A stretch of DNA of 64,000 nucleotides from an uncultured Gemmatimonadales bacterium. Lineage in GTDB: Bacteria > Gemmatimonadota > Gemmatimonadetes > Gemmatimonadales > GWC2-71-9. Positions within the stretch are counted from its first letter, which is position 1; each line of letters begins with the position of its first letter. The stretch covers positions 410,002 through 474,001 of the forward strand of contig CAWIXT010000006.1 of NCBI GenBank assembly GCA_963840165.1. The letters run 5' to 3'. Both the position numbers and the translations under genes were made by a program. The notes under the pieces are model-generated. The model saw only the letters and a list, made by a program, of their open reading frames with translations. It did not search any database and was not told where the DNA came from. This document shows positions 180 through 63,205 of this stretch, in pieces.

Positions 180-479
180 GGTGAACGGTAAACGGTAAAC
201 GGTGAACGGGGTCGCGGACTAGAGCAGCACGCTTTTCACCGTTCAACGTTGTTTTGATCCGCCCGTCCGTCCCCCCGTTCACCGTTCACCGTTCACCGTT
301 CACCGTTCACCGTTCACCTTTCACCGTTCACCTTTCACCGTTCACCGTTCACCGTTCACCGTTCACCTTTCACCGTTCACCGTTCGCCATTCACCGTTCA
401 CCATTCACCATTCACCATTCACCGTTCACCATTCACCGTTTACCGTTCACCGTTTACCGTTCACCGTTCACTCTTCACT
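180..479. repeat. Inverted heptamer tandem-repeat element: (GGTRAAC)x4 then about 28-29 GTTCACC-like units
   Basis: GGTGAAC/GGTAAAC at 180-207; short reverse patch at 235-247; long GTTCACC/ATTCACC/TTTCACC array at 277-479. Confidence 0.97.
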
Positions 480-490
480 TCGAGTCGTCC

Positions 491-1507
491 ATGAGCACCA
501 CGCTCCCCATCCCACGGCCCCGCACTTCCTTCCCTCAGATCGGAGCGGTGAGCTGGGAGCATCCGGCTGACCGGGCCGCGCTGCAGACCCTCCGTGCGGT
601 GCCCGGAGTGGACGACATGATCCGAAAGGTGCTCGCGATGCTGGGGGGCGAGCGCGGCATACGACTGCTGTTTCAGGGCAACGCGGTACGCGCGGGCGCC
701 TCCCAGTTTCCTCTGTTGTGGCAATTACACACCGAGGTCGCTGCCACCTTCGACTGGCCAGTGGTGCCCGAGCTGTACGTTTCGCAGACGCCGTTCTTCA
801 ACGCCGGCGCGTATGGCATCGACACCCCGTTCATCGTGGTGCATTCGGCCGCGCTCGAGCTGCTCGACGACGATGAGCGCCGGGTCCTGCTCGCGCACGA
901 GATGGGTCACGTGATGAGCGGTCACGCGCTGTATCACACCATCGCCGCCATTCTGGCGATGATGAGCCTCGGGGCTCTTCCCGCGCTGGCTGGGCTCGCG
1001 GTGCTTCCCATTCGTCTCGCCTTTCTCGAATGGTCCCGCAAGTCGGAGCTCTCGGCCGACCGGGCGGGGCTCCTGGGCGGGCAGGACATTGTGGTGGCCC
1101 AGCGGCTGGACATGAAGATGGCGGGCGGCGGACGGGGCAGCGGGTTCGAAGGTCAAATGGACGTCGACTCGTTCATGCGGCAGGCCCACGAGTACGCCGG
1201 AAGCTCGGAAGGGCTCGACGTGGTGTACAAGCTCCTGAGCACGCTGGCGCTGACCCACCCCATGCATACGGTCCGCGCCGCCGAGCTGCAGAAGTGGGTG
1301 GGAACGGGGGAGTACGAACGCATCCTGCGGGGGGAGTACACCCGGCGCGGCTCCGAAACCAAGGAACGGCCGCTGAAGGACGATATGGCCGCGGCGGGAT
1401 CGTACTACGCGGGGGAAGCTCGCGAGCTCGCCACCCAGGTGGCCGAGGTGGCGCGGCGTGCCGCGGCATCGGCGCGGGACGCATTCCGGAACGCCCAGAA
1501 GCCGTGA
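491..1507 (+). CDS. M48 family zinc metallopeptidase
   Basis: HEMGH zinc motif, ELSADR, THP motif, NAGAYG; ATG 491 lies just after the repeat array. Confidence 0.9.
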   Translation: MSTTLPIPRPRTSFPQIGAVSWEHPADRAALQTLRAVPGVDDMIRKVLAMLGGERGIRLLFQGNAVRAGASQFPLLWQLHTEVAATFDWPVVPELYVSQTPFFNAGAYGIDTPFIVVHSAALELLDDDERRVLLAHEMGHVMSGHALYHTIAAILAMMSLGALPALAGLAVLPIRLAFLEWSRKSELSADRAGLLGGQDIVVAQRLDMKMAGGGRGSGFEGQMDVDSFMRQAHEYAGSSEGLDVVYKLLSTLALTHPMHTVRAAELQKWVGTGEYERILRGEYTRRGSETKERPLKDDMAAAGSYYAGEARELATQVAEVARRAAASARDAFRNAQKP

Positions 1508-2817
1508 GGCTCCTAGTGGTCGGCGGCGGCGGACGAGAGCACGCCCTCTGCTGGGCGTTGCGGCGCGAGAATCCTGGAGCCCAACTCTACTGCGCGCCCG
1601 GTAACCCGGGTACCGAGGATCTCGCCACCAATCTCCCCATCGCGGCCGACGATCTGGACCGGATCGCCGATGTGGCCGACATGCATGGGATCGATCTCAC
1701 CATCATAGGCCCTGAGGTGCCCCTGGCTCGCGGGCTGGCAGACCGGCTTCGGGCCGAGGGCCGGCTGGTGTTCGGCCCCGGCGCCGCCGCGGCCCAGCTG
1801 GAGGCCTCAAAGGCGTTCGCCAAGGATGTCATGGAGGCGGCCCGGGTCCCCACCGCGAGCAGCCGGACCTTTACCGACCTGGCCTCCGCCCTGTCCCATG
1901 TGGACCGTCACGCCGAGCCTCTGGTCGTGAAAGCGTCGGGCCTGGCCGCCGGGAAGGGGGCTGTGGTCTGCGCCACTCGGGCGGAGGCCCGGCAGGCGGT
2001 TCGGTCGATGCTGGAAAGCGGCGACTTCGGCCCCGCCGGCCGGACGGTGGTGATCGAGAGCTTCCTCGAAGGAGAGGAGATCTCGGTGCTGGCGCTGACC
2101 GACGGAACCGATATCGAGCTCCTACCTGTCGCCCAGGATCACAAGCGCCTCCTGGAAGGGGACCGGGGCCCGAACACCGGAGGAATGGGTGCGTACAGTC
2201 CCGTCGCCCTGGCCACTCCGGAGCTGCTGGACCGGATCGCGCGCGAGGTGCTGGCGCCGACACTGGAACAGATGCGGCGGCTCAGGACCCCCTTCTCCGG
2301 CGTTCTCTACGCCGGGTTGATGATCGACCCGAGTGGAGAGCCCTGGGTGGTCGAGTTCAACTGCCGCCTGGGCGATCCCGAGGCCCAGGTGGTGTTGCCC
2401 TTGATCTCCGGAGGGCTCACCGACGCCCTTGTCCGGGTAGCGGAAGGAAAGCCACCATCACGTCTGGAAACCACCGGCGCCTCGGCAGTCACCACTGTCC
2501 TCGCGGCCCGGGGCTATCCTGATGCGCCGGAAAAGGGAGCCGAGATCGTGCTCCCGACGGAGCTGCCCGAGGGAGTGACCCTCTTCCATGCCGGCACCGT
2601 CCGCGAAAACGGCCGGCTCAGGGTAAGCGGAGGCAGAGTACTGACCGCCACGGCCCTGGCTCCGACCTTCCCCGAAGCGCAACGGCTGAGTCGGGAGGCG
2701 GCGGAAGCGGTACGATACCAGGGAAAGATCTTCCGGCGTGACATCGGCTGGCGGGAGGCGGCCCGGCTGGACCGGCGCGCCGCGGCGCCGATCCCCTTAG
2801 CCAGTTCTGATGCCTGA
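1504..2817 (+). CDS. purD: Phosphoribosylamine-glycine ligase
   Basis: VRLLVVGGGGREHAL, APGNPG, LEASKAFAK, KASGLAAGKG, QDHKR, GPNTGGMGAY, EFNCRLGDPE; GTG overlaps upstream TGA. Confidence 0.97.
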   Translation: MRLLVVGGGGREHALCWALRRENPGAQLYCAPGNPGTEDLATNLPIAADDLDRIADVADMHGIDLTIIGPEVPLARGLADRLRAEGRLVFGPGAAAAQLEASKAFAKDVMEAARVPTASSRTFTDLASALSHVDRHAEPLVVKASGLAAGKGAVVCATRAEARQAVRSMLESGDFGPAGRTVVIESFLEGEEISVLALTDGTDIELLPVAQDHKRLLEGDRGPNTGGMGAYSPVALATPELLDRIAREVLAPTLEQMRRLRTPFSGVLYAGLMIDPSGEPWVVEFNCRLGDPEAQVVLPLISGGLTDALVRVAEGKPPSRLETTGASAVTTVLAARGYPDAPEKGAEIVLPTELPEGVTLFHAGTVRENGRLRVSGGRVLTATALAPTFPEAQRLSREAAEAVRYQGKIFRRDIGWREAARLDRRAAAPIPLASSDA

Positions 2818-3635
2818 GCTTCCCGAAGTCGAAACCATCGTCCGCGATATCCGCCCTTCCCTTGTCGGCCGCCGCATCGAGCGCGTCAGGCTCAGCCATG
2901 ACGACGTGCTTCGAGGTGTGACTCGGCGCCGGCTGCTGCGCCGCCTGGCCGGCGCCACCATTCGGAGCGTGTCCCGGCGGGCCAAGCACGCCGTGCTCGA
3001 GCTCGACTCGGCGCGCCTGGTCATTCAGCCCGGGATGACGGGGTCGCTCATGGTGCACCACCAGCCGCTGGGTCCCGATGAGGCTAAGTACGCCGTCCTG
3101 CGGGCCGAGCTGGACCGGGGCGAGGAGCTGGTCTATCGCGACGTGCGCCGGCTGGGGACCCTGTTGTTGCTCGATCCCCGGCAGTGGGCCCGGTACGACC
3201 GCCGCGATCGGGCCCGAGCCGCTGGACGATGATTTCACCGCCGAGCAGCTGGGCGAGAGGCTTCGCCGCAGCCGCCAGGCGATCAAGAAAGTGATCATGG
3301 ACCAGCGGCATCTGGCGGGGGTCGGAAACATCTATGCCAATGAGGCCCTCTTCGCCGCGGGCATCGACCCTTCGAAGCCCGCTCACCGGCTCACTCCCGA
3401 GGACCACGTCAGGCTGCATGCGGAGATTCGCCGGATTCTGGCGGCGGCGATCGCCTCCTCCGGGACTACGTTCCGTGACTACCGGACCGGCACCGGGGAG
3501 ACGGGGAACTTCCAGCTGGAGCTTCAGGTCTACGGGCGGGAGGGCGAGCCCTGCCGCGTCTGCGGCACCCGGCTCGCGGGAACCCACACGATAGACGGGC
3601 GGACCACCGTCTTCTGCCATCGGTGTCAGCGATGA
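2810..3635 (+). CDS. mutM: Formamidopyrimidine-DNA glycosylase, one frameshift near 3200 (probable read error)
   Basis: MPELPEVET in one frame; GPEPL, GVGNIYANE and zinc finger CRVC...FCHRCQ in the other; extra base near 3200. Confidence 0.92.
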
Positions 3636-4735
3636 GGGGCCGCGGACGAGGCCAGCGGGTGGCGCCCCTTCCCTCGACTGACCTGGACCAGCTGCGCAAG
3701 CGGATCCGCGCATTGGCGGAGAACCGGCCGGCGGTGTATCAGATGTTCGATGCGTCGGGGCGGGTTCTCTACGTCGGCAAAGCCAAGCGTCTCCGAACCC
3801 GGCTGCTCAGCTATTTCAGGGCGACGTACCCCGACGACAAGGCGGCGCGGATCCTCTATGCGGCCGGCGAGATTCGCTGGGATTATGTGCCGAGTGAGTT
3901 TGCGGCCTACCTGGGAGAGCTGCGGCAGATCCGGAAATACCGTCCCTACTTCAACCACAAGGGCAACCGCACCCGGCGCTCGGTGCTGATCAAGGTTGCG
4001 GGTGGTCCGGCGCCCCGAGTGTACAGCGGCGGGACGGTGACCCGGGACGACGTCCGCTGCTATGGCCCCTTCCAGTCGATGGCCCGGACCCTGGAAGCGG
4101 TGCGCACGCTCAACGATCTGCTGGGCCTCAGGGACTGCCAGCCCACCATGCCGGTGGTGTTTGCCGGGCAAGGTGACCTCTTCGCGGAGCCGCGCCAGGC
4201 CGGCTGCATGCGGCACCAGTTCGGCTTCTGCAGCGGGCCCTGCGCGGGGTACGTCACCGAGTGGGAGTACCGCCGGAAGGTGGACACGGCGATGGCGTTT
4301 TTGGAGGGGCGGACGCTCCAGCCGATGGACCGGGTGGTGGCCTCGATGCAGTCGGCCGCGGAAAACGCGGAGTTCGAGCTGGCGGCGCGCTGGCGCTCCA
4401 AGTTCGAGCAGCTCGAATGGCTGCTGGCGGCCACCAGCCGGGCGCGAACCGCGATTGACCTGCTCACGTTCGTTTATCGTGACGTAGGGGATTTCGGCGA
4501 CGACCGGGTTTACCTGATGCGGCGGGGGGTGGTGCGGGCTTCGTATCCCTACCCTGCTACTCCGATCGAGCACGAGGCGTTCCGGGGGGTGGTGGCCGCA
4601 GAGATGAGCCAGCCTCCTGCGCCTGCCGGGCCGCTGCCGCTGGAGTCGATAGACGAGGTGTTGCTCATGATGTCGTGGTTTCGGGCCCATCCCGAGGCGC
4701 TGCGCCGGACGACGCCGTACGAACAGTGGATGTGA
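3632..4735 (+). CDS. GIY-YIG nuclease with UVR domain (UvrC N-terminal/Cho-like)
   Basis: PAVYQM...LYVGKAKRLRTRLLSYF, YGPF, Cys cluster C..CMRHQFGFCSGPC, AEFELAARWR; ATGA overlap with mutM. Confidence 0.85.
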   Translation: MRGRGRGQRVAPLPSTDLDQLRKRIRALAENRPAVYQMFDASGRVLYVGKAKRLRTRLLSYFRATYPDDKAARILYAAGEIRWDYVPSEFAAYLGELRQIRKYRPYFNHKGNRTRRSVLIKVAGGPAPRVYSGGTVTRDDVRCYGPFQSMARTLEAVRTLNDLLGLRDCQPTMPVVFAGQGDLFAEPRQAGCMRHQFGFCSGPCAGYVTEWEYRRKVDTAMAFLEGRTLQPMDRVVASMQSAAENAEFELAARWRSKFEQLEWLLAATSRARTAIDLLTFVYRDVGDFGDDRVYLMRRGVVRASYPYPATPIEHEAFRGVVAAEMSQPPAPAGPLPLESIDEVLLMMSWFRAHPEALRRTTPYEQWM

Positions 4736-4801
4736 GGAGCAGCACCCTACTTAAACTGCTGCTCCTCATCTGGTAGCGACCACCCTAAATCCTGACGTCC
4801 G

Positions 4802-5161
4802 ATGCCCCTCTCTGTTGGCCTGGCTACCGAATGGCGGCACAAGGTGTTTGTCGGCTATGTGCTGGTCATGATTCTTGTATTCCTGCTGCCGGTACCATCG
4901 ACCCCACTGGAGGGATTCGATTACTTCGACAAACTGGTCCATTTTGGAATTTTCCTGGGGTTTGCCCTCCTCTTCTATCTAGACCGGCATCGGGGGTCGT
5001 GGAGGACGTTCCTGATCGCGACCGCATTCGCGGGTGGCACTGAGCTGCTTCAGGGGATCCTGCCGTACCGCGAGGGTGACTGGCTGGATTTCGTTGCTGG
5101 AGCAGCAGGTGCCGGCTGCGGCGCCGCTCTCGCCCACGCAGCTAGAAGATCCTATAGATGA
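4802..5161 (+). CDS. VanZ family membrane protein
   Basis: DKLVHFGIF, TELLQGILPYREGDWLD motifs; hydrophobic. Confidence 0.85.
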   Translation: MPLSVGLATEWRHKVFVGYVLVMILVFLLPVPSTPLEGFDYFDKLVHFGIFLGFALLFYLDRHRGSWRTFLIATAFAGGTELLQGILPYREGDWLDFVAGAAGAGCGAALAHAARRSYR

Positions 5162-5270
5162 ACGGCGCCAGAACCGAGCCCTGCGCGGACACAAGGAGCG
5201 CTCCGAGTAGTAGCATCAACACGATGATGGGCAGGAGCCACCACTTCTTGCGGACCCGGACGGAATGCTC
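5142..5270 (-). pseudogene. DUF5989-like small membrane protein remnant
   Basis: RVRKKWWLLPIIVLMLLLGALLVSAQGSVLAPFIYRIF matches the family C-terminal pattern; no plausible in-frame N-terminus. Confidence 0.7.
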
Positions 5271-33165: not shown

Positions 33166-33761
33166 CACTTCTCATCTCCTCCCCATCGACGTGCGATCTC
33201 GAATGTCGATCCCCAGCTGATCCAGGATCCGCTGCACGATGAAGTCTACCAGACTCGCTGACCCTGGTGGGACGATGATAGAAACCCGGGGCCGCCGGCA
33301 CCACCACGGCGCCGGCCTCGGTCACGGCGACGAGGTTTCTCAGATGCACCAGCGAAAGCGGGGTTTCCCGCGGCACCAGGATCAGCTTGCGCCGCTCCTT
33401 CAGGGTGACGTCGGCCGCGCGCTCCACCAGCGACCGGCTGGTGCCGCCCGCGATGGCCGCGACGGTGGCCATCGAACAGGGACAGATCGACCATGCCGCC
33501 GGTACGCTGGGAGCCGGAGGCCGGCTTGGCGCCCCGGTCGTCGTCGGGAAAGAGGTACACCGAGCCCAGTCTCCACCGGTGGCCTCCTTCAGCCCCTCCA
33601 GCGACTTGATGTTGCACTCTTCCCGCAGCAGCCGCATGCCATGCTCGGACGGCGATCAGCCAGACCGGCACCCGATCGCGGGCCAGCACCTCGAGCAAGC
33701 GAACGCCGTAGGGCGCGCCCGAGGCGCCGGTAAGCGCGAGGACGACGGGGAGGGAGGTCAT
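33165..33761 (-). CDS. ubiX: Flavin prenyltransferase UbiX/MqnM, frameshifted
   Basis: ALTGASGAPY, PASGS, CPCSM, RAADVTLKERRKLILVPRETP, PAAPGFY. Confidence 0.9.
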
Positions 33762-33804
33762 CGGCCGCGGCGGTTCGGGGTGGGGGAGCGGACGGGGTGC
33801 TTGG

Positions 33805-33961
33805 GGCGGTACGGCGGTACGGCGGTACGGCGGTATAGGCTTCGTCTTTTCCGGAGGCGCGTTTAGGCGTTTGCCATGAGGGGCAGGGCCTTCGGGATAG
33901 CCGGTCTTGGGCCTCCTGCCTCTTGCTCCTACCGCCGTACCGCCGTATCCGCCGTACCGCC
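33805..33961. repeat. Inverted octamer tandem-repeat element (GGCGGTAC)x4 / (GTACCGCC)x4
   Basis: 33805-33836 forward arm; 33929-33961 reverse arm with one 9-nt unit. Confidence 0.9.
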
Positions 33962-33962
33962 T

Positions 33963-34893
33963 TCATACCACCCGATCGACGAGCGCAAACCCAAACACCA
34001 GTCACCGACATCACCCCGTTCATGGTGAAGAACGCCGCGTCCAGCCGGCAGAGATCGCCGGGCCGCACCAGCTGGTGCTCGTAGACCAGAATACCGGCCG
34101 CGACGACGAGGCCGATATAGTACCACAGTCCGAAGCCGGCCGCGTAGCCGAAGAGCGCGAGCGCCGGAATGGTGACGGCCGTGGAGCAGCTTGGCCAGCA
34201 GGATCGCGCGCGACTCGCCCAGCCGGACCACGGCGCTCCGAAGTCCCTCGAGCCCGGTCGAAACCCGCATCGGGCAGCGCGTAGAAGATGTCGAACCCGG
34301 CGACCCAGGTGGCGACCCCCGCCGTGATGGCGAGCAGCATCCAGGCCGGGTCGCTCCAGTGGCCGGTGACCGCCAGGTACCCGCCGACCGGGGCGATCGC
34401 CAGGCTCACGCCGAGCCAGAGGTGCGGCCACCAGGTGAATCGCTTGGAGAGGCTGTAGAGCATGATCCAGCGCGAGCGCGACCGGGCTCAGCAGCAGGCA
34501 CAGCGGATTGAGCACCGCCGCCGCCACCACGAAGATGCCTGCCGCCAGCACGACCGACACCCAGGCCTGAGTGAGCGACAGGGTGCCCCGGGGAAGCTCC
34601 CGATTCTGGGTGCGGGGGTTGCGTGCGTCGAAGCTTCGGTCCGCGATCCGGTTGAACCCCATGGCGGCCCAGCGCGCGGCCGAAAAGGCAATAATGACGA
34701 GGGCGACGTCGCCCGCAGTGACCGGGGCCACCCTCGAGGCCGCCAGAACGCCGAGTAGCGCAAAGGGCAGAGCGAAGAGGGTGTGGGGAAGCTTGACGAA
34801 GTTGACGTAGCGGATCAGCAGGGATTCCCCGCCGAATGTCTGCGCTTCGCGGTCTAGAGTCGAGGGTCTAGGGTCTAGAGGCTGGCCCGTCAC
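33963..34893 (-). CDS. UbiA-family prenyltransferase (MqnP-like), frameshifted
   Basis: VKLPHTLFALPFA, NRIADRSFDARNPRT, WVAGFDIFYA, AFFTMNG; GTG overlaps ubiD TGA. Confidence 0.9.
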
Positions 34894-34935
34894 GCCGACC
34901 CTCGACCCTTGACCCTTGACCCTTGACCCTCTAGG
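34851..34935. repeat. Inverted heptamer element (GGTCTAG/AGTCGAG)x4 / (CTYGACC)x4-5 spanning a gene junction
   Basis: 34851-34878 and 34894-34928; both arms lie in coding sequence. Confidence 0.88.
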
Positions 34936-36408
34936 CGAATCCCCAGCTTCTCCCACATCTCATCCACGCTCTGTTTGGTCTTATCGTCCATCTTGATCAG
35001 CTCGGGCCACTCCCGGTCGAAGCCTTCTTCCTTCCATTTGCGGGTGGCATCGATGCCCATCTTGCTGCCGTAGGTGAAGGCGCGGCTGGAATGATCCAGC
35101 ACGTCCATCGGCCCCATGCTGAAGCGCACGTCCCGCTCGGGATCGATGTTGTTGAGCGCGACCCACCATGCCTCGTCCGGGTCCTGGACGTTGACTTCCT
35201 TGTCTACTACCACGAGCACCTTCGCGAGCGACATCAGGCCCTGGCCCCACAACGCATTCATCACCTTGTAGGCCTGGCCCGGGTACTGCTTGTCGATGGA
35301 GACGAAGACCAGGTTGTGGAAGATGCCAGGCGCGGGCATGTGGTAGTCCACGATCTCGGGAATGGTGAGCTTGAGCAGCGGCAGGAAGATCCGCTCGGTG
35401 GCGTGACCCAGGTAGAAGTCTTCCATCGGCGGCCGGCCCACCAGAGTGGCCGGATAGATCGGATCCCGCCGCGAGGTGACGGCAGTGATGTGGACCTTGG
35501 GATAGTAGTCGGCGAGAGAGTAGAACCCGGTGTGGTCGCCGAAGGGCCCCTCCAGCACCAGCTCCTCCGCCGGATCGATGTAGCCCTCCAGCACCATCTC
35601 GGCTTCGGCCGGCACATCGAGGTCGGAGGTGAGCGCCTTGGCGAGCTCGACCGGCTCGCGCCGGAGAAACCCGGCGAACAGGAACTCATCGATCGTCGGT
35701 GGCAGCGGCGCCGACCCGGCGTAGATGCTGGCGGGATCACCGCCGAGGGCAATGGCGACCGGCATGCGCTCGCCTTTGGCCGCCATCTCCCGCCAGTGAG
35801 CCGCGCCGACTTTATGCCGCTGCCAGTGCATGGCGAGCGTATTGGGGCCCAGCACCTGCACCCGATACATCCCGACGTTCCGTATGCCCCGGCTGGGATC
35901 GGTCGTGATCACCATCGGCAGCGTGATATAAGGGCCCCCATCGCCGGGCCAGGTGGTGAGAAAGGGGATGCGCTCGAGGTTGACGGCCTCGTCCCGCTGC
36001 ACCACCTCCTGGCACGCGGGACGGCCGCCCCTGACTCGGGGAGGGAACTTCCCGATCTCCGCCAGCCGGGGCAGCATGGCCAGCTTGCCGAAGAGTCCCT
36101 CCGGCACCTTCAGGTTGAGCATCTCGGATATGCGGCCGCCGATGTCGTCGAGGCGCTCAGTCCCGAGCGCCAGGCACATCCGGCGCATGGAGCCGAACAG
36201 ATTGATGGCGACCGGCTGCTCGCTCCGCTGGCCGTCTGTCGAGGAGCACGTGCTCGAACAGCAGCGCGGGCCCTCCTCCCGGACTCTTCATGACCCGGTC
36301 GGCGATCTCGGCGATCTCCAGCCGGGCTCGCACGGGATGGCTGACCCGGACCAGCTCGCCGATGCGGTCGATCGACTTGATGAAGTCGCGGAGGTTGTTA
36401 ATGGCCAT
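34890..36408 (-). CDS. ubiD: UbiD-family decarboxylase (MqnL-like), frameshift near 36235
   Basis: LEIAEIADRV, GGPALLFE, NVGMYRVQ, EGPFGDHTGFY, VGRPPMED, KMGIDAT. Confidence 0.93.
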
Positions 36409-36418: not shown

Positions 36419-36553
36419 CGTGAACGGTAAACGGTGAACGGTAAACAGGCGTTTACCCGGCCGAGTCTCGCCTCTCGTCCATCGATACCTCTTCACTCTC
36501 ACCCGTTCACTATTCACTATTCACCGTTCACCGTTCACCGTTCACCGTTCACC
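36419..36553. repeat. Inverted heptamer element (GGTRAAC)x4 / (RTTCACY)x7+
   Basis: 36419-36446 and about 36492-36553. Confidence 0.95.
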
Positions 36554-40693: not shown

Positions 40694-40699
40694 TAAAGG

Positions 40700-40812
40700 C
40701 GTAAGCGGGAACTGCGAGAACGTGAGCGGTAAGCGGGAGACAGTACTGACTCCGGGCGCAGGACCCCCCGCTCACCGCTTACGCCGTTTGCTTTTCCCGC
40801 TTACGTCTTACT
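40700..40812. repeat. Degenerate inverted heptamer element (SGTRAGC / GCTYACS)
   Basis: CGTAAGC, CGTGAGC, GGTAAGC at 40700-40734; GCTCACC, GCTTACG, GCTTACG at 40770-40805. Confidence 0.75.
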
Positions 40813-42164: not shown

Positions 42165-42177
42165 GCGGGAAACGTAA

Positions 42178-42267
42178 GGTGGAGCGGCGGTAGGTGAAGC
42201 GGCGGTAGGTAGAGCGGCGGTAGGTGAAGCGGCGGTAGGTAGAGTCGTGGCCCTTCCGCCTAGCCGC
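42178..42267. repeat. 15-mer tandem repeat (GGTRRAGCGGCGGTA)x4.5 with weak inverted partner
   Basis: Units at 42178, 42193, 42208, 42223, partial 42238; CTTCCGCCTAGCCGC at 42253-42267. Confidence 0.9.
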
Positions 42268-43619: not shown

Positions 43620-43742
43620 AGTCGCGCGTGACGAGCCACGAATTACGGAAACAGTGTAGTTCAGCGTGCGCCGGCGTTCCCGTCGGACTCCCCGCGGTCA
43701 GGCTGAAGTTCTTGCGCGCCTCGCGACTCGCGACTCGCGACT
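43620..43742. repeat. Inverted heptamer element (AGTCGCG-like x4 degenerate / CGCGACT x3-4)
   Basis: AGTCGCG CGTGACG AGCCACG AATTACG at 43620-43647; CGCGCCT then CGCGACT x3 at 43715-43742, inside the nrnA 3' end. Confidence 0.75.
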
Positions 43743-44755
43743 CCATTCGTCCCCAAATACTCCCGCGCCGCTTGCAGTACCACCCGCTGCACCTCCGCCA
43801 TCGACCCAACCAGACTCAGACCCGCTGCCTTGGTGTGTCCGCCTCCCCCGTAGGGCTTGGCGAACGCCGCCACGTCCACATTACCAACCGACCGCAGCGA
43901 CACCTTCACCCGCCCCTGGGAGATCTCCCGGAACAGCAGCGCCATGCGAACGCCCTCGATGGACCGGGGAAACTCCACCACCCCGTCGAGGTCGTCGGAG
44001 GACACCTTGAGCCGCTCGATAGCGCCCGGAGGGACCGTGACCCAGGCCAGGCCGTACTCCTGCTCCACCACCAGCGTCTGCAGCGCTTCGGCGAACAGCC
44101 GGGGGCGGCCCTCGGGTGCCTTGGCATACACCTCCAGATAGATCTCCTCGGCGTCCACCCCGGCCTCGAGCAGGTCGGCGGCCACGCGGAGCGTGCGGGG
44201 CCGGGTGTTGCTGAAGCGAAAGCCGCCGGTATCGGTGAGAAGGGCGACGTACAGCCCGCGGGCGGCCGCCTGGCTCATGGGCCACTCATTGGCCCGGGCC
44301 ACCTCGAAGACGAGCTCGCCGGTGGCCGCGGCGCCGGGATCGACGTAGCGGGGACCGGCCGGGAGCACGCCGGCGCTCACATGATGATCGATGCACGCGA
44401 CCGGCACGCCGGAATCCCGCACGGTCTCGATCAGCATACCGAGACGGTTGAGGTCCGAGATGTCGAGGACGATGATAAGGTCCGCCCGGCGCAGCTCCTT
44501 CACGGCTTCCGGGGAGCGGTCTACTCCGGGCAGGTCATCGAACAGGAAGCTGAACCGCGGGGGAGTGGGGCTTGGATTGGTGATGACGGCATCGATTCCC
44601 TGGGTGCGAAGCAGGTGCACCAGCCCTACCTCACTGCCCAGGCCATCGCCGTCCGGATTCACATGCGTCGTGATGCAGACCCGTTGCCCGGGCTTGAGTG
44701 CGGCGGCGAATTCCCGGGCCCGGGCAATCTGATCTGGTGACAGTGCGTACGGCAT
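43661..44755 (-). CDS. nrnA: DHH/DHHA1 oligoribonuclease / pAp phosphatase
   Basis: HVNPDGDGLGS, IDHH, TDTGGF, GGGHTKAAG. Confidence 0.93.
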   Translation of the reverse strand: MPYALSPDQIARAREFAAALKPGQRVCITTHVNPDGDGLGSEVGLVHLLRTQGIDAVITNPSPTPPRFSFLFDDLPGVDRSPEAVKELRRADLIIVLDISDLNRLGMLIETVRDSGVPVACIDHHVSAGVLPAGPRYVDPGAAATGELVFEVARANEWPMSQAAARGLYVALLTDTGGFRFSNTRPRTLRVAADLLEAGVDAEEIYLEVYAKAPEGRPRLFAEALQTLVVEQEYGLAWVTVPPGAIERLKVSSDDLDGVVEFPRSIEGVRMALLFREISQGRVKVSLRSVGNVDVAAFAKPYGGGGHTKAAGLSLVGSMAEVQRVVLQAAREYLGTNGVASRESRGAQELQPDRGESDGNAGAR

Positions 44756-47827: not shown

Positions 47828-47939
47828 CGTGAAGGGTGAACGGTGAACGGTGAACGGTGAAGTAGTGAACGGAGATTCGATGCTGAGCGGGACGGGCGCC
47901 CCGTTTACCGTTCACTGTTTACCGTTTACTGCATTCACG
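47828..47939. repeat. Inverted heptamer element (GGTGAAC-like x6 / GTTYACY x4-5)
   Basis: 47828-47870 and 47903-47939. Confidence 0.93.
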
Positions 47940-54966: not shown

Positions 54967-54970
54967 AAAT

Positions 54971-55077
54971 AGTCGCCAGTCGCCAGTCGCCAGTGTGAAC
55001 CGCAGGTGAGGTCTAGGCTTAATTCATAATCTGGCGACTGGCGACTGGCGACTGGCGACTGGCAACTGGCGACTGGC
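54971..55077. repeat. Inverted heptamer element (AGTCGCC)x3 / (GGCGACT)x6
   Basis: 54971-54994 and 55033-55077. Confidence 0.95.
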
Positions 55078-56154: not shown

Positions 56155-56184
56155 AGTGGCGCATTGTAGAACACGCGGAGACCC

Positions 56185-57735: not shown

Positions 57736-58493
57736 TGCGAGTTGCGGCCACGATTCTCCGGAACCAGCGAGCCAGGTCCCTCGCTGCGCTCGGCATGAGG
57801 ATCGCTGTCTTGTGCGGTCTAGCCGGTCAGCCCGCCCTTGCCCAGGTGGGCCATCCGCCAGGAGCCTCGCCGTTCAGAGACATCCGTAAGGGACACACAC
57901 TGACGGCGCTGGGAGGATATTTCGGCGGCAGCGGGGGGGATTTCAACATGGGCCCTCACAACGGCAGGGTCCTGGGCGGGCGATACGACATCCGGACCGG
58001 CAGCACGATCCAGCTCGGCCTGGGCGTCAGCTACGGTACCCTGGAGCGCTTCATCGTGAATCCATACGTGCGCCTGGCGAACCGGCGCAGCGGCCCGGTG
58101 TCCCAGGCCGTCACTTTCGCCGATCTCACGGTCCAGTTCAACATGACAGGCGGCAAGAGCTGGAACCGGCTGGCGCCATTTATCGCCTCCGGGGTGGGGC
58201 TGGCATTCGCGGAGGATACCCCGGCCGACACCAGTGGCTACGACTTCGGTAACGAGTTCTACCTGGCGCCGAGCGCAGGGGTTCGGATTTTCCTCAGCGA
58301 TCGGTTCCACTTCAAGGGCGAGGTCAAGGCAATCTTCTGGAAGCTGGACTATCCCACCACATTCCAGCAGGAGCCGGTGGAGGAGCCGGGGACGATCGAC
58401 GACCGCAACGCGGTGATTACCGACAACGACCTCTCAGAATGGACCACGAGCCCCTGGTTTCAGCTGGGCTTCGGCTACTCGTTCTCGCCCTGA
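57735..58493 (+). CDS. Putative outer-membrane beta-barrel protein
   Basis: Signal peptide to ALA-Q; alternating strands PFIASGVG, AGVRIF; C-terminal LGFGYSF; start 57735 or 57796. Confidence 0.65.
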   Translation: MRVAATILRNQRARSLAALGMRIAVLCGLAGQPALAQVGHPPGASPFRDIRKGHTLTALGGYFGGSGGDFNMGPHNGRVLGGRYDIRTGSTIQLGLGVSYGTLERFIVNPYVRLANRRSGPVSQAVTFADLTVQFNMTGGKSWNRLAPFIASGVGLAFAEDTPADTSGYDFGNEFYLAPSAGVRIFLSDRFHFKGEVKAIFWKLDYPTTFQQEPVEEPGTIDDRNAVITDNDLSEWTTSPWFQLGFGYSFSP

Positions 58494-58583
58494 CAATGGC
58501 GGCGTCCCTCTGTACCGTTCCTTTCCGCGGAAGACACCTGAATCTCGACCTGCCGGTCATGTTCATGGAGGATCCCAAGCTGT

Positions 58584-59378
58584 ATGCCGACTGTACCGGG
58601 CGTGACTGACCGGACCCAGCCTTCCAAGCGGGGCGGCCGCATGTCGGAGGACGCGGTGGTAGAAGAGGTGCCGGTGTGGCTGGAGGTAAACAGCCGTCCT
58701 GCCGTGACATGGATGTGCACCCCCGACCTGCTGGAAGAGCTGGCCCTCGGGTGGCTGCACGGAGAAGGCTATATCGACAGCATCGAGCAGGTGCGCCTCC
58801 GCCCCTGCGCCACCGATCTCGGCTTCTGGGCCGAGATACCGCCGGAGCGGGTGGCCGCCGTCGCAGCGGAGGCACGCAAGCCTGTGTTGGCATCGGGCTG
58901 CGGGGCCGTCTCCACTTTTCTCGCCGATCCTGCCACCGTAGACGGCCAGCCCTCGAGAGGCACGGCGCCGGGCCCGGAAGAGCTGCGCGGCTGGTTCAAG
59001 GCACTGTTCGCGAAAGGGGAGCGCTACAAGGACACCGGTGGAATCCATGCCGCGGCGTTGATCGATCCCGCCGGCGTGCCGTCGCCGCTCATCGCCCACG
59101 CGGAAGACATCGGCCGGCATAACGCCGTGGACAAAGTGCTGGGAAGCGCCCTTCTGGCCGGCCGGGCGGTGCAGGGCCTGGGGCTGCTGGTGACAGGAAG
59201 AATCTCAGCCGAGCTTGCGTTCAAGGCCGCCAGGGCGGGGCTGGCGTATGTCGCCACACCTTCGGTTCCATCTACCCTGGCGGTGGAGATTGCCCGCCGC
59301 AGCGGCATGATCCTGATCGGACGGGCGGTGAGCGCACACCCACAGCATCATGGTGCAGCGGGCCCCGGTGCCTCCTGA
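58584..59378 (+). CDS. fdhD: Formate dehydrogenase accessory sulfurtransferase
   Basis: EE.PV, TPDLLEELALG, SGCG, TGGIHAA, EDIGRHNAVDK, TGRIS; start uncertain. Confidence 0.93.
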   Translation: MPTVPGVTDRTQPSKRGGRMSEDAVVEEVPVWLEVNSRPAVTWMCTPDLLEELALGWLHGEGYIDSIEQVRLRPCATDLGFWAEIPPERVAAVAAEARKPVLASGCGAVSTFLADPATVDGQPSRGTAPGPEELRGWFKALFAKGERYKDTGGIHAAALIDPAGVPSPLIAHAEDIGRHNAVDKVLGSALLAGRAVQGLGLLVTGRISAELAFKAARAGLAYVATPSVPSTLAVEIARRSGMILIGRAVSAHPQHHGAAGPGAS

Positions 59379-59781
59379 CCGGAAACGGCTTCGGGAAATC
59401 CTCCGGACCGCCCGTCGCATCGCCGTCGTGGGCCTCAGCCGGAAACCGGAACGCCCCAGCCACGGAGTGGCGGCATACCTCCAGTCGGCTGGGTATACCA
59501 TCATCCCGGTTCATCCCGTCGGGGGGGTGACCCTCGGCGAGCCGGTGCATCCGGATCTCCGGTCTGCTGCTGCCGCGGGGCCTATCGACGTAGTGAACAT
59601 TTTCCGGCGATCGGAGCACGTGCCCGCGCTGCTCGAGGCGATGCTCGAGGTGCGGCCGGCGTTGGTCTGGATGCAGCAGGGGATTCGGCACGACGGCGTG
59701 GCACGGGAGCTGGAAGCAGCCGGTATCGATGTCGTCATGGACCGGTGTCTCGCGGTGGACCACCAATTTCTGGGGGCCTGA
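59368..59781 (+). CDS. CoA-binding protein (YccU-like)
   Basis: IAVVGLS.KPERPS, IPVHP, DVVNIFR, WMQQG, VMDRC. Confidence 0.9.
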   Translation: MPPDRKRLREILRTARRIAVVGLSRKPERPSHGVAAYLQSAGYTIIPVHPVGGVTLGEPVHPDLRSAAAAGPIDVVNIFRRSEHVPALLEAMLEVRPALVWMQQGIRHDGVARELEAAGIDVVMDRCLAVDHQFLGA

Positions 59782-60578
59782 TGCGGATTCGAAGGCTGGT
59801 CTGTGCCGTCCTCCTCGGGACCGGTGTCGCGCCCCTGAGCGCCGGCGCGCAGGCCACTCGGGACGAGGCGCGCCTGGTTCTCGGTGTTTCGCTTGGATGG
59901 GTGGACGGCGCGGACCTGTGGTCGGTCAGTCCGCAAGCAGTGCAGTTCACCACTCCCACGGACAGCTTCGGCGTCAGCCGGCGGATCCGGTCGAATCTCG
60001 TGGTCGGCTTCGGGGGCACGTACTTCCCGAGCGCGAAGCTGGGGATCGCCGTGGAGGGCTTCCTCATCGGACTCGGCTTCGAGGACAACTGCCGCCACGT
60101 CTTCACCTCGGGCTCGGGCGAGGTCGCGGCAGTCTGCCAGTCGCTTCAGGGGCGCGTGAAGCCGGCAAGCGCCGTTACCCTGTCCGCGGGTCCGGTGTTT
60201 CGATTCAGCAGCCGGAAACGGTTATCTCCCTACGCCCGTATCAACCTGGGCCTTACCCTCAGCAACCAGAGCGCGATCAGAACCCAGGGAGAGTTCCCGA
60301 CCGATTCCGGACCATCAACCCTTGTGATTTACAATGATGACAAGACCTCGAGGGTCGATCCTTCGCTCGCCCTGGGGCTCGGAGTCACCGCGGCCCTCGG
60401 GAAGGGATCTCAGCTTCGTTGGGAGATCCGCGACAACATCCAGGGGATCCACCAGGTTACCGGATCCATTCCCATTGCCGGGTTCGTTCCGCCCCACGAG
60501 CTCGTATTCAAGCATCTTTTCAGCATGACGTTCGGCTTCGACATAATCCTGGAGCGGCGGAGGGGGCGTCGATATTGA
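59781..60578 (+). CDS. Putative outer-membrane beta-barrel protein
   Basis: Signal peptide to AGA-Q; strands SPYARINLG, ALGLGV, LRWEIRD, MTFGFDI; TGATG coupling. Confidence 0.6.
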   Translation: MRIRRLVCAVLLGTGVAPLSAGAQATRDEARLVLGVSLGWVDGADLWSVSPQAVQFTTPTDSFGVSRRIRSNLVVGFGGTYFPSAKLGIAVEGFLIGLGFEDNCRHVFTSGSGEVAAVCQSLQGRVKPASAVTLSAGPVFRFSSRKRLSPYARINLGLTLSNQSAIRTQGEFPTDSGPSTLVIYNDDKTSRVDPSLALGLGVTAALGKGSQLRWEIRDNIQGIHQVTGSIPIAGFVPPHELVFKHLFSMTFGFDIILERRRGRRY

Positions 60579-60579
60579 A

Positions 60580-60638
60580 GCGGGACAGCGGGACAGCGGA
60601 GCCTGCCCTGAGCGGAGCGAAGGGACCGAGGGACAGCG
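60580..60638. repeat. Octamer repeat (GCGGGACA) enclosing a small REP-like hairpin
   Basis: GCGGGACA x2 at 60580-60595, CCCTGAGCGGAGCGAAGGG at 60606-60624, GAGGGACA at 60628. Confidence 0.65.
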
Positions 60639-61246
60639 TGCGTGGAGCTATCCTGGCTGGTGGTGAGGCCAGCCGGTTCGGCGGCAAGCCCAAGGGCCTG
60701 GAGGTCGTAGGGGGAGAGCGGATCCTCGACCGGCTGGTCGAGGTGATGACAGCCGCGCTGGAAGAGCCGCCGCTCCTGGTCGCCAACGCGCCTGACGCTT
60801 CCAGCTGGCGGCCCGACCTGCGCACGGTGGCGGATGTGCGGCCCGGCCTCGGGGCCCTGGGCGGGATCTACACCGCGGTGGTCGAAGCACCCGCGCCGGT
60901 GGTGTGCGTCGCCTGGGACATGCCGTTCGTCTCGGAAGGTCTGATTCGCGCCCTGGCCGCGCAGCTCGCACGGCACGATGCCGTACTTCCGGAAAGCGGC
61001 GGGCGCCGAGGGGTCGAACCGCTGTGTGCCGCGTATGGCCCCGCCTGCCGGGATGCGATCGCCGCCAGTCTCACGGCCGGCGATCTGCGGGCCATCGGCT
61101 TCCACGACCGCGTCAGAGTCGGTATCCTCCCCCTGGCCGAGGTGCGCTCACTCGCGGACCCGGACCTCCTCTTCTTCAACGTGAACACCGCGGACGACCT
61201 CGCGAAAGCCGACCAGCTGTGGCGTCAACACGCATCATCTCGGTAA
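60638..61246 (+). CDS. mobA: Molybdenum cofactor guanylyltransferase
   Basis: AILAGGEASRFGG.PKG, GALGGIYTA, AWDMPF, EPLCAAY, FNVNT. Confidence 0.93.
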   Translation: MRGAILAGGEASRFGGKPKGLEVVGGERILDRLVEVMTAALEEPPLLVANAPDASSWRPDLRTVADVRPGLGALGGIYTAVVEAPAPVVCVAWDMPFVSEGLIRALAAQLARHDAVLPESGGRRGVEPLCAAYGPACRDAIAASLTAGDLRAIGFHDRVRVGILPLAEVRSLADPDLLFFNVNTADDLAKADQLWRQHASSR

Positions 61247-61752
61247 TTGGGCGGAAGAACGCCGGCAAGACGACGCTGGCGGTGGCCCTGACCAGCGAAC
61301 TGGTGCGCCGCCGGCACCGGGTCATGACGATCAAACATGGTCACCATCCCGCCACGGTGGACCAGCCCGGAACGGACACCTGGCGCCACTTCAACGAGGG
61401 CCGAGCCGAGCGAACTCTGATCGCCTCGCCGGAGCTGCGGGTGCTGTTCGAGCGCAGCGCTGATGACTACGACCCCGTAGGCCTGGCACGACGCTACATG
61501 GAGGGGGCGGATATCGTGGTGACGGAGGGGTTCAAGGCGGCCCCGCTGCCCAAGATCGAGGTCTTTCGGCGGGCCGTCGGCAACCAGCCCATCTATTCGT
61601 CGTCGGCCGCCAATGCGTCGGAATGGGTGGCAATCGTCACCGACGATCCTGACTTCGAAGCCGACTGTCCGGTGCTCCGCTTCCACGACACCATCTGGCT
61701 GCAACTACTGGCCAACCTCGCCTGGGACCGGGCCCTGGTCCTCGAGTCGTGA
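61219..61752 (+). CDS. mobB: Molybdopterin-guanine dinucleotide biosynthesis protein B
   Basis: GRKNAGKTT, IKH, DQPGTDTWR, EGFK, PKIEV. Confidence 0.93.
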   Translation: MASTRIISVIGRKNAGKTTLAVALTSELVRRRHRVMTIKHGHHPATVDQPGTDTWRHFNEGRAERTLIASPELRVLFERSADDYDPVGLARRYMEGADIVVTEGFKAAPLPKIEVFRRAVGNQPIYSSSAANASEWVAIVTDDPDFEADCPVLRFHDTIWLQLLANLAWDRALVLES

Positions 61753-63002
61753 GCCCCCCTCTCAGTGCCGCCGAAGCCGCGGAGAGGATCCTGCTCGACG
61801 TGCGGCGGCAACCCGAGCTGCGCATCCCACTCGACGACGCGCTTGGGAGCGTGCTGGCTGAAGATGTCGTCAGCCCGCTCGACATTCCGGCCTGGACCAA
61901 CTCCGCCATGGACGGCTACGCCGCCCGCGGTGCGGACGTCCGGGGCGCCAGCGAGTCCCAGCCGATCCGGCTTACCGTCGTTGAACATCTTCCGGCCGGC
62001 CGCTTCCCTACCCGCGCCATCGGTCCCGGTGAGTGCGCCCGGATCTTCACCGGCGCCCCGCTCCCGGAGGGCGCCGACAGCGTCATCCGCCAGGAGGACA
62101 CAGACGAGGGACCGAGAACCGTCACCATCATCAAGGACCGTGACGTTGGGGTGAATACCCGCCGGGCCGGCGAGGACATCCGGAAAGGAGCCACCGTGCT
62201 CACGGCGGGCACCGAGCTGGGAGCGGCGCAGCTGGGCGTGCTGGCCTCGCTCGCCGTCGCTCACCCCCTGGTGTACCGACGGCCCCGTATCGGAATCCTC
62301 GGTAGTGGCGACGAGATCGTGGATGTAGACCGGCCCGAGGAAATTCTGAGCGGCAGGAAGATCGCCAGCAGCAACTCCCATACGCTGAAAGCGCTGGTGC
62401 GTCAGACGGGAGGAGAGCCGGTGAACCTCGGTATTGCGGCCGACACGCCGGAAAGCCTGAAGGAACACCTGGCGCGGGCTACCGACTGCGATTTGCTGGT
62501 GACCAGCGCCGGGATCAGCGTGGGGGAGCACGACTACCTGCGTTCCGTGCTGGACGAGCTTGGTGCTACGCTGCGCTTCTGGAAGCTTCGTATGCGGCCC
62601 GGTGCGCCGGTGGGCTTCGGCTTGCTGGGCGCGCTGCCGTGGATCGGTCTGCCGGGCAATCCGGTCAGCACCATGGTCACCTACGAACTGTTCGTGCGGC
62701 CGGCGGTGAGAAAGATGATGGGGCACGGCCTCCCCTTTCGTCGCAGCGTGCCGGTGCGTCTCGGCGAGCCGATTTCCCTGAAGCCCAAACTCCAGCACTT
62801 TCTGCGCGCGGTGGTGACGGAGACCGATCAGGGTCCAGAGGCCCGACTCACCGGGCCACAGGGGTCAGGGATTCTGACCTCCATGGCCCGGGCCAACGCA
62901 TTGCTGGTGATCCCCGAGGGCCAGCATGAGACGCCGGCCGGGGGCCGAGTACAGGCTCTGCTTCTCAATGACCCGGTACATCAGGGGGACCCGGGGTTCT
63001 AG
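61749..63002 (+). CDS. moeA: Molybdopterin molybdotransferase
   Basis: SAMDGYA, IFTGAP, GDEI, SAGISVG..D, MRPG.P, LPGNPVS, QGSG. Confidence 0.97.
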   Translation: MSPPLSAAEAAERILLDVRRQPELRIPLDDALGSVLAEDVVSPLDIPAWTNSAMDGYAARGADVRGASESQPIRLTVVEHLPAGRFPTRAIGPGECARIFTGAPLPEGADSVIRQEDTDEGPRTVTIIKDRDVGVNTRRAGEDIRKGATVLTAGTELGAAQLGVLASLAVAHPLVYRRPRIGILGSGDEIVDVDRPEEILSGRKIASSNSHTLKALVRQTGGEPVNLGIAADTPESLKEHLARATDCDLLVTSAGISVGEHDYLRSVLDELGATLRFWKLRMRPGAPVGFGLLGALPWIGLPGNPVSTMVTYELFVRPAVRKMMGHGLPFRRSVPVRLGEPISLKPKLQHFLRAVVTETDQGPEARLTGPQGSGILTSMARANALLVIPEGQHETPAGGRVQALLLNDPVHQGDPGF

Positions 63003-63008
63003 AAAGAC

Positions 63009-63205
63009 GGTGAAGAGTGAAGGTGAACGGTGAACGGTGAACGGTGAACGGTGAACGGTGAGCGGTAAGCGGTAAGCGGTAAACGGTAAGCGGTAAACGG
63101 TAAACGGTAAGCGGTAAGCGGTAAACGGTAAGCGGTAAGCGGTGAACAGGGCCCCCACCACCCGTTCACCGTTCACCGTTCACCGTTTACCCTTCACTGT
63201 TCCCA
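63009..63205. repeat. Inverted heptamer element (GGTRARC)x~20 / (GTTYACC-like)x6 between convergent genes
   Basis: 63009-63147 (18 clean units from 63022); 63164-63205. Confidence 0.97.

Follow-up and report, generated by a model that had tools for sequence, protein, structure and literature searches.

Inverted tandem-repeat hairpins at gene junctions of a Gemmatimonadales bacterium, likely partners of four-helix-bundle gene cassettes

Introduction

What are the short inverted tandem-repeat arrays that recur at gene junctions in the genome of an uncultured Gemmatimonadales bacterium? The question is raised by a stretch of 64,000 nt (here called the window: GenBank assembly GCA_963840165.1, contig CAWIXT010000006.1, positions 410,002 to 474,001 of the forward strand). 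An original prediction, made from the letters of the window alone, listed about 11 loci there, nearly all consisting of a tandem arm, a short spacer and a reverse-complement arm, and proposed that they share a common generating or maintaining mechanism. The source assembly, from a soil bacterium, has 3.38 Mb in 9 contigs, with 65% G+C, and is 77% complete. In the labels used below, G000 is the source genome, other G numbers are relatives, and C stands for a contig.

The loci are described here as a hairpin-forming intergenic family, in which each element pairs two inverted arrays of a single unit of 7–9 nt, or rarely 15 nt. We judge the odds to be slightly in favour of their being the gene-less partners of cassettes that carry a TIGR02436/PF05635 gene, the family of the 23S rRNA intervening-sequence proteins. 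By analogy, the best reading is that the elements are kin to the intervening-sequence cassettes of rRNA, and are related to the cassette gene roughly as REPINs are to RAYT.

Results

Inverted array pairs have one polarity

Arrays were searched for with Tandem Repeats Finder (TRF). Two arrays were counted as a strict inverted pair if both had at least 2.8 copies, their units were reverse complements within 1 mismatch, and they were separated by at most 500 nt. TRF found arrays at all 11 listed window loci, with all the units that had been read from the sequence (GGTGAAC, GGTAAGC, AGTCGCC, AGTCGCG, GGTCTAG, GGCGGTAC and a 15-mer). Nine loci have both arms, as had been said of nearly all of them, and seven of these are strict pairs. 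The remaining two, 42178 and 60580, are single arms: this had been predicted for 60580, and the weak partner described at 42178 was not found. In total the window has 16 arrays of period 7, 8, 9 or 15 with at least 2.8 copies, compared to a chance expectation of 0.77 on average and 5 at most (30 order-2 Markov simulations). Eight loci were folded, and seven gave z scores between −5.8 and −8.1, with none of 200 shuffles equally stable. None of the 11 loci contains a four-helix-bundle open reading frame (ORF), and none lies in helix 25 or 45 of 23S rRNA; each is intergenic or at the end of a protein-coding gene. Their coordinates are listed in Table 1.

A genome-wide census, which had been suggested as a check, bears this out. 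At a threshold of 2.8 copies TRF found 1045 arrays, among which periods 7 (450 arrays) and 8 (298 arrays) are in sharp excess. Gene contexts were assigned with a crude self-trained gene caller, by which 352 of the 450 heptamer arrays and 160 of the 298 octamer arrays are intergenic, compared to only 6 of 89 hexamer arrays. The arrays form 193 inverted pairs and 14 direct pairs, with a median spacer of 51 nt. Removal of overlaps and gene-bearing loci leaves 180 distinct gene-less elements, which have a median length of 117.5 nt and a median shorter arm of 27 nt.

The left (5′) arm contains more G than C in 165 of the 193 pairs, equal amounts in 15, and less in 13. Each unit family has, with hardly an exception, one orientation as left arm (ATTGGCT 17:0, AGTCGCG 17:1, ACAGCGGG 17:0, and another 10:0). 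When units are rotated into register a core becomes visible, which is RGT in 26 of 51 distinct units and RGY in 38. In the 5′-arm orientation the information in this core exceeds that of all 60 shuffles in each of three data sets, and RGT outnumbers its reverse complement by 26:3 in the source genome, 18:1 in relatives' cassettes and 12:5 in cassettes from other phyla. The outer ends of the arms are in fixed phase with the core: AGTC... opens 22 of 39 left arms, and GGCT... opens 15 of 24.

It had been claimed that the arm containing RGT is always 5′, whatever the gene orientation. The fixed polarity stands, genome-wide and for each unit family, while RGT itself is a tendency. Independence from gene orientation is a geometric necessity and no evidence, because a structure X...rc(X) is identical on both strands. 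The informative point is that just one of the two possible palindrome polarities is in use. A function that depended on structure only would be served by either, and the polarity therefore points to recognition that is specific for both sequence and orientation, or else to directional production of the arms. An assembly artefact is unlikely, since independently assembled relatives have the same architecture.

Intergenic arrays that were counted as single number 279. In 76 of these a two-copy partner is present where expected; one array has it on the wrong side, and two have partners on both. Those that have no partner are positioned like half-elements, in that the 5′ type abuts the left gene and the 3′ type the right gene, with approximately 60–135 nt free on the other side, which is about what a spacer and a decayed arm would occupy. 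They have no link to the direction of transcription (51 vs. 43). Compound elements were seen at G000:C6:408799-408960 and C6:12973-13150, in which two or three families, among AGTCGCG, AGTCGCC and GGCTATT, have their arrays adjacent to or nested in each other, as would result if one element had inserted into another.

One conceivable origin for such arrays is independent polymerase slippage at pre-existing stems, which would make them ordinary simple-sequence repeats. Heptanucleotides are reported to be the commonest long simple repeats in many genomes, for which slippage has been proposed (Mrazek 2007, as quoted in PMC4679880), and copy numbers do vary here, both between arms and between relatives. 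Slippage does not however account for the fixed polarity, the common core and limited vocabulary, or the phased ends. Nor does it account for three observations described below: whole elements in junctions that are 4–28 nt long in relatives, the coupling to cassettes, and the lack of any pair in 400 kb of G004, which is of the same genus. We therefore disfavour this explanation, and consider it most improbable.

Four-helix-bundle genes lie between the same kind of arms

The original prediction suggested looking for TIGR02436 genes between arms, and this search was positive. PF05635 finds 8 loci in the source genome (9 hits, one gene being split), and all 8 lie between a G-rich 5′ array and a complementary C-rich 3′ array, with the gene in either direction. 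Six of these cassettes pass the strict rule, and the other two have degenerate repeats on both sides, which were read by eye. The cassette units are AGTCGCC, AGTCGYG, GGGCTAT, AGCGGGAC, GGTGAAC, GGGAATGA/GAAGGAGG, an AGCGTAAGCGGGAAC-like unit, and the 15-mer found at 42177 in the window. The genes with AGTCGCC, GGTGAAC and AGCGGGAC arms are at G000:C8:108322-108636, C7:433804-434112 and C6:748636-748941. Five of the proteins were scanned and match TIGR02436 (“four helix bundle protein”) with 59–119 bits, where the cut-off is 24. Cassette proteins also match PDB entries 2gsc (E 7e-34) and 2rld, both of which were deposited with five chains. With the model for Avd of diversity-generating retroelements (NF033474) they score 20–25 bits, under the cut-off of 80.

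The family is present in 34 of 41 genomes of the order. We examined 90 loci from the order (8 from the source genome and 82 from relatives), of which 88 have a protein hit and 54 of these 88 have strict matched arms; many of the remainder are at contig ends or have degenerate arms. Public genomes from many phyla gave 80 loci, fetched using an alignment of six proteins, which samples mainly one subfamily. Matched tandem arms flank 32 of the 68 that lie away from contig edges, and a further 13 show a plain inverted repeat.

The split gene, at G000:C7:46039-46352 with GGGCTAT arms, is in two frames and is probably a pseudogene; GGCTATT/GGCTATG still ranks among the largest dispersed families, with 23–24 loci. 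Matched arms also surround small ORFs at G000:C6:642635-643295 (172 aa), C6:202161-202576 (77 aa) and C6:877931-878496 (145 aa). By tblastn these three are not four-helix-bundle genes, and may represent either other cargo or small native genes that arms have come to enclose.

Dispersed elements tend to share units with the resident cassettes

The units of a genome's own cassettes match 121 of the 180 gene-less elements in G000 within 1 mismatch. With random sets of eight units taken from the cassettes of relatives, the match averages 27% and never exceeds 59%, so that none of 1000 sets reaches the observed value. For relatives, dispersed pairs were counted in 400-kb samples. Own cassette sets match 13 of 17 pairs in G026 and 4 of 5 in G034, whereas foreign sets match 7–14 of 180 in G000, 0–3 of 17 in G026 and 0–2 of 5 in G034.

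A single orthologous cassette provides a comparison. Its arm unit is AGTCGCC in two genomes, G000 and G015, and AGTCGCG in a third, G023. Three tandem copies of AGTCGCC occur 28 times in G000, 24 times in G015 and not at all in G023, with at most 2 occurrences in any of the other 38 genomes. The corresponding counts for AGTCGCG are 30 in G000, which also carries an AGTCGYG cassette, 3 in G015 and 11 in G023. The density of inverted pairs also differs: G000 has 18–24 per 400 kb, while G004, from the same genus and with a broken gene only, has none. G020, which has one octamer-armed cassette, has eight, all of them octamers.

Arms and protein vary together. Arms share a unit (within 1 mismatch) in 4 of 4 comparisons between proteins that are at least 80% identical, in 13 of 58 at 60–80%, in 6 of 324 at 45–60%, in 5 of 678 at 30–45%, and in 1 of 211 below 30%. 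Unit length follows the same trend with protein identity. Many cassettes are syntenic between genomes, and the trend in unit sharing remains when syntenic pairs are dropped. Some syntenic orthologous cassettes have different units and arms that still match each other, such as AGCGGGAC vs. GGCGGGTA, GGGTGTA vs. TAGGGGC, and a 7-mer vs. an 8-mer. The two arms therefore change in concert, which fits copying from one arm to the other as well as selection for pairing. A tree of 51 proteins has 4 changes of unit length, compared to 14–24 in 500 label shuffles, and all units of at least 8 nt, with one exception, fall in a single clade of 23 (SH-aLRT 95). Related proteins share labels by descent, so what the tree shows is long co-inheritance with a conserved period, and not recognition.

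Gene-less elements are neither decayed cassettes nor copies of each other

Spacers of at least 20 nt were searched with 84 four-helix-bundle proteins using tblastn. The only spacer hits are five of the cassettes themselves, and across the whole genome only the 8 known loci are found; no gene remnant was seen in a gene-less spacer. Spacers flanked by the same unit are no more alike than those flanked by different units (Mann–Whitney p 0.34), and an all-vs-all blastn of 164 spacers gave few hits, mostly from double-counted loci and one nested repeat of approximately 105 nt. (This repeat lies in the loops of three elements, at G000:C6:400293, C6:908496 and C9:506564.) It follows that the gene-less elements are neither simple deletion derivatives of cassettes nor whole-element copies. 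The suggestion that they are scars of a mobile cassette thus fails in its literal sense.

Other candidates for the content of the elements were also considered. Pairs of arrays 2–4 kb apart might have held large cargo, but they enclose housekeeping genes and their arms are often in 3′–5′ order, so that they are read as neighbouring elements. The element spacer and the right-hand gap beside the start codon at the IMPDH junction were compared with the empty sites of relatives as possible old intergenic sequence, and gave no consistent signal (shuffle p 0.015–0.86). At the MoeA/TonB junction it is the outer gaps, and not the spacer, that resemble the empty site by eye.

Classical elements of the miniature inverted-repeat transposable element (MITE) or REPIN type, moved by a transposase, would also be intergenic palindromic repeats, and the nested and compound arrays would suit them. 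The genome does contain one gene for a Y1 transposase (PF01797, IS200/RAYT type, G000:C6:527110-527448). At this locus (527092-527544) the gene is followed immediately by a 15-mer element, but there are no arms upstream, so it does not have arms on both sides. Moreover, one Y1 gene would have to serve dozens of unit families, internal sequence is not shared within families, and no target-site duplication was recognised at the few filled and empty junctions compared, in what was not a systematic search. We regard this explanation as very unlikely.

A stronger rival is that a directional process at the DNA level makes the arms, with the four-helix-bundle gene as a frequent passenger. Candidate processes are the healing of breaks by addition of G-rich units to both 3′ ends, and fold-back template switching. 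Much in the arms suits this: the G-rich strand runs 5′ to 3′ toward the centre in both, as in broken ends that were extended and rejoined; spacers are unique and not inherited with the arms; whole elements are not copied; and arm copy numbers are unequal (4.9 vs. 28.1 in element 176-471). On the other hand, a search of the genome, which is 77% complete, gave no PF00078 reverse transcriptase, and fold-back copying predicts palindromic spacers, which are absent from the folds. The fixed phase of the outer ends is also against it. A passenger would not be expected to show the relationships described above, in which unit and period go with the lineage of the protein, and dispersed units with the cassettes of the same genome. 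We consider a passenger gene unlikely, while giving it some weight.

Elements come and go at gene junctions

Elements occur in all four contexts of gene orientation, at about 5–7% of the junctions in each. They begin 0–4 nt past stop codons and end approximately 17–19 nt ahead of start codons. A T-tract follows the 3′ arm in 20 of 180 elements (11%), compared to 2.7% of random intergenic 12-mers, and an A-tract precedes the 5′ arm in 12 of 180.

Orthologous junctions were compared in five genomes of the same GTDB genus, in which the IMPDH protein is 93–95% identical and the DNA approximately 75–87% identical. Junctions that are filled in the window measure only 4–28 nt or have other units in these relatives (Table 1), and at the IMPDH junction four of them share a conserved empty site. 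By this comparison, which had been suggested, the elements are insertions that turn over fast between relatives. In metagenome contigs 92–96% identical to the window, 66 other letters replace the element at the IMPDH junction. No sequencing run matched the strain itself, the best share of words being 0.10. Apparent joins there from 47850/47861 to 47908, with 22–24 nt on one side, come from other copies of the repeat and are uninformative.

The positions described here are what would be expected of host regulatory structures selected junction by junction, such as terminators, mRNA stabilisers, translational couplers, or sites for a nucleoid or RNA-binding protein. There are strong hairpins exactly at gene junctions, with a constant offset ahead of start codons and enrichment of T-tracts after the 3′ arm, and for the hairpins of short tandemly repeated repetitive (STRR) sequences between hupS and hupL, transcript stability or translational coupling has been proposed (in the part of PMC2670836 available). 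However, close relatives have the same junctions empty or filled with other units, the four orientation contexts are used alike, and structure alone leaves the 192:1 polarity unexplained. As T-tracts are present at so few elements, intrinsic termination was rejected as a general function. Regulatory selection is in our view a rather unlikely explanation.

The window loci and their surroundings

The window loci are listed in Table 1, together with their junctions in relatives.

Table 1. Array loci in the window, with their arms, position, folding and orthologous junctions (positions as in the window)
Feature	Coordinates	5′ arm	Spacer	3′ arm	Position and remarks	Fold	Same junction in relatives
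Element, strict pair	176-471	176-209, GGTAAAC/GGTGAAC x4.9	65 nt	275-471, CCGTTCA x28.1	Between upstream gene (stop 163) and M48 peptidase gene (start 491)		
Octamer element, strict pair	33805-33961	33805-33835, GGCGGTAC x3.9	94 nt	33930-33961, TACCGCCG x3.9		RNA, −96 kcal/mol, z −8.1	
Element, strict pair	34851-34931	34851-34878, GGTCTAG x4.0	17 nt	34896-34931, CGACCCT x5.1	Adjoins end of UbiD gene	z −6.35	
Element, strict pair (36423-36446)	36420-36553	36420-36446, GGTGAAC/GGTAAAC		36492-36553, CCGTTCA	Junction of UbiD start and UbiE stop; GGTGAAC element	z −7.87	G002 7 nt; G023 12 nt; G016 GGTAAGC element; G024 and G008 a different kind of palindromic repeat
Imperfect inverted repeat, ~13-15-nt units (GCGTAAGCGGGAA-like)	40697-40809	40697-40739		40766-40809	Between LiaF-like gene and DUF4126	z −7.27	G002 related element
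Single 5′-type arm	42177-42244	15-mer AGGTGAAGCGGCGGT x4.3			Between SAM_HAT and Mrp/ParA-type gene; no partner arm; 15-mer is arm unit of cassette G000:C6:970021-970748	No hairpin (42170-42262 folded, z 0.03)	G024 and G002 18-23 nt; G016 and G023 other units
Weak 5′ arm and clear 3′ arm	43620-43743	43620-43636, AGTCGCGCGTGACGAG		43715-43743, CGCGACT x4.1	3′ arm inside last ~30 codons of DHH-family ORF (stop 43661)		
Element, strict pair (to 47929)	47829-47931	47829-47861, GGTGAAC	39 nt	47901-47931, GTTTACC/GTTCACT	Between IMPDH stop (47935) and amino-acid permease start (47808); GGTGAAC-type element	z −7.85	Conserved empty site of ~60-66 nt in G002, G024, G023, G008
Element, strict pair	54971-55077	54971-54994, AGTCGCC x3.4	36 nt	55031-55077, CTGGCGA x6.7	Units are arm units of cassette G000:C8:108190-108694	z −6.26	
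Single 5′-type arm	60579-60599	AGCGGGAC x2.6			Abuts stop of upstream gene; no partner		
Element, strict pair	63009-63202	63009-63147, GGTGAAC/GGTAAGC/GGTAAAC; also a higher-order 21-mer	14 nt	63162-63202, CCGTTCA x5.9	Between convergent MoeA and TonB-receptor genes; junction 204 nt	z −5.79	G016 4 nt; G002 28 nt

Several of the neighbouring genes are of interest. Past its Pfam domains, the final 30 or so codons of the DHH/DHHA1 gene (43661-43750) come from the element's 3′ arm and spacer, and the protein seems to have acquired a new tail through this insertion. The region 33962-34850 is conserved in four relatives like coding DNA, although the gene caller finds no clean gene there, and a 455-residue ORF on the minus strand (33589-34956) spans both of the elements that flank it; it may be a gene that the flanking elements have disrupted or extended. 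UbiD is read as two overlapping ORFs on the minus strand, 36157-36408 (UbiD_N) and 34890-36188 (main and C-terminal domains), which may reflect a frameshift, a sequencing error or a split gene. The palindromic repeat at the UbiD/UbiE junction of G024 and G008 is of a second kind, approximately 100–200 nt long and without tandem units.

Window positions 4700-33800 have 56–61% G+C, compared to approximately 66%, and contain a cluster for polysaccharide synthesis, with genes for glycosyltransferases, a Wzy-like ligase, a flippase, a sugar transferase, a sulfotransferase, a chain-length tyrosine-kinase-type protein and an RCC1-repeat protein. This island may have been acquired recently. It contains no 7- or 8-nt arrays of at least 3 copies, which by our estimate, for its approximately 20 junctions, is not clearly beyond chance.

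Discussion

The polarity, the vocabulary built on an RGY core, the phased ends, the insertions and the coupling to cassettes together support the proposal that one common mechanism generates or maintains the elements, and speak against independent slippage. A mechanism can be suggested for the partnership with the cassettes that we favour. The arms would be inward-facing arrays of recognition sites for a four-helix-bundle protein, probably pentameric, and would be comparable to the repeated binding sites in transposon ends; inward-facing arrays would explain the single polarity. Acting in trans and together with host enzymes, the protein would maintain arrays of its unit or seed new ones, in the manner of RAYT and REPIN. 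When transcribed, stems of approximately 24–31 bp might be cut by RNase III, as in the Coxiella intervening sequence, and such cutting would make an insertion between genes or in rRNA tolerable.

A wider proposal can be made more tentatively, and we put it at clearly below even chances. TIGR02436/S23p pentamers may be keepers of dispersed hairpins, specific for sequence and register, with one word per lineage, and this would account for STRRs, the heptamer excess and rRNA intervening sequences. Each lineage would read its own word of 7 or 8 nt, the protein sitting between two inward-facing arrays, and a non-enzymatic protein would maintain gene-less arrays across the genome in a partnership like that of REPIN and RAYT.

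A number of observations weigh against a partnership between elements and cassettes. Concerning the coupling, the list of own units was hand-picked, with two units taken from degenerate arms, and the contrast between AGTCGCC and AGTCGCG is based on three genomes. No cassette in the G020 assembly is cognate to AGCGGGGC, which is the main dispersed unit there with 5 of 8 pairs, and the genome's own cassette matches just 2 of the 8. The GGCTGTT cassettes of G008 and G024 are almost without dispersed copies, as counted with the exact threefold pattern. G031 has 8 gene hits, of which the 6 examined are without tandem arms, and no pairs in 400 kb; the four-helix-bundle gene thus does not need tandem arms. 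Across phyla, 23 of the 68 loci lack an inverted repeat at the thresholds used.

Other points concern history and mechanism. The results from the tree and from the comparison of own with foreign cassette sets across genomes could arise from co-inheritance alone, labels being shared by descent, and the cassettes look old and syntenic rather than recently mobile. The gene-less spacers have neither a gene remnant nor any likeness within a unit, and the birth of a new element with a unique spacer is left unexplained. We know of no catalytic activity for the four-helix-bundle protein. Finally, the gene contexts depend on the crude gene caller.

Comparison with known systems

REP and REPIN elements and their RAYT genes were reportedly described by Nunvar in 2010 and by Bertels and Rainey in 2011. 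A REPIN family is tied to a gene that is usually single-copy, vertically inherited and flanked by its own inverted repeats. The system described here is similar in having dispersed intergenic palindromes, a syntenic gene flanked by arms, and dispersed units that track the arms of the gene. It differs in that the gene encodes a four-helix bundle of approximately 115 residues without a nuclease fold, and not a Y1 HuH transposase, and in that the arms are tandem arrays and the loops are not conserved within a family. Compared to MITEs, inverted ends are present and internal sequence is unshared.

The nearest described system is the ORF-bearing 23S rRNA intervening sequence. That of Coxiella is described as selfish (PMC4990558). 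It has a 28-bp terminal stem cut by RNase III, 2–3 tandem heptamers that differ from strain to strain, and an ORF for S23p, a family said to form homopentamers of four-helix bundles. The cassettes have the same PF05635/TIGR02436 protein in their loop as these sequences (in helix 45 in Coxiella burnetii; Leptospira has them as well). Terminal inverted repeats and a long stem are shared, and the tandem heptamers are in the 5′ part there, as far as that text describes them. The elements here lie between protein-coding genes and not in rRNA, their stems consist entirely of tandem units, and cutting by RNase III is a prediction made by analogy. There are also approximately 180 well-formed gene-less loci, and the 11 window loci have no ORF.

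The nearest described repeats are the STRRs of cyanobacteria, which are likewise mostly intergenic arrays of approximately 7 nt that can form hairpins. They are said to have been reported by Mazel in 1990 and to have been without a function since. The canonical STRR1–3 units are one mismatch away from units seen here, and equal none of the top 50 of the 122 distinct units in the source genome. The host here belongs to a different phylum, and octamers, nonamers and a 15-mer are also present. The hupS–hupL STRR hairpins are described as intergenic tandem heptamers of unknown function, and neither polarity nor a four-helix-bundle link is part of that description, in the available part of the article (PMC2670836). 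The TAACTGA heptamers of Beggiatoaceae, Cyanobacteria and Bacteroidetes are intergenic, just upstream of starts and patchy, with horizontal spread suspected (PMC4679880, available part). According to the same text they consist of one unit repeated directly, apart from one inverted case, and follow the orientation of the gene downstream; a role in translation is proposed for them. Here, by comparison, there are inverted pairs, many units, and independence from gene direction.

PF05635 is said in a review to resemble Avd (PMC10053308, available part). The cassette proteins are distant relatives only, below the family cut-off, and are not Avd; nor does the 77%-complete genome have a PF00078 match, such as a diversity-generating retroelement would have beside its Avd gene. 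No link between the TIGR02436/S23p family and dispersed tandem-repeat hairpins was found in the texts searched, which did not extend to subscription journals or supplements, and the string “TIGR02436” occurs in none of them.

Significance

The elements have practical consequences. They break short-read assemblies, with many gene hits at contig ends, and can lengthen ORFs, the DHH tail at 43661-43750 being an example. They also vary between near-identical strains, so that they may be useful as typing markers. If the coupling to cassettes is causal, one mechanism ties together heptamer repeats, STRRs and the widespread and unexplained S23p family. If true, this would give an origin for many of the “heptamer repeats” of bacteria, and would add, next to RAYT/REPIN, a second case of a resident gene in lasting partnership with its repeats, here without a recognisable nuclease.

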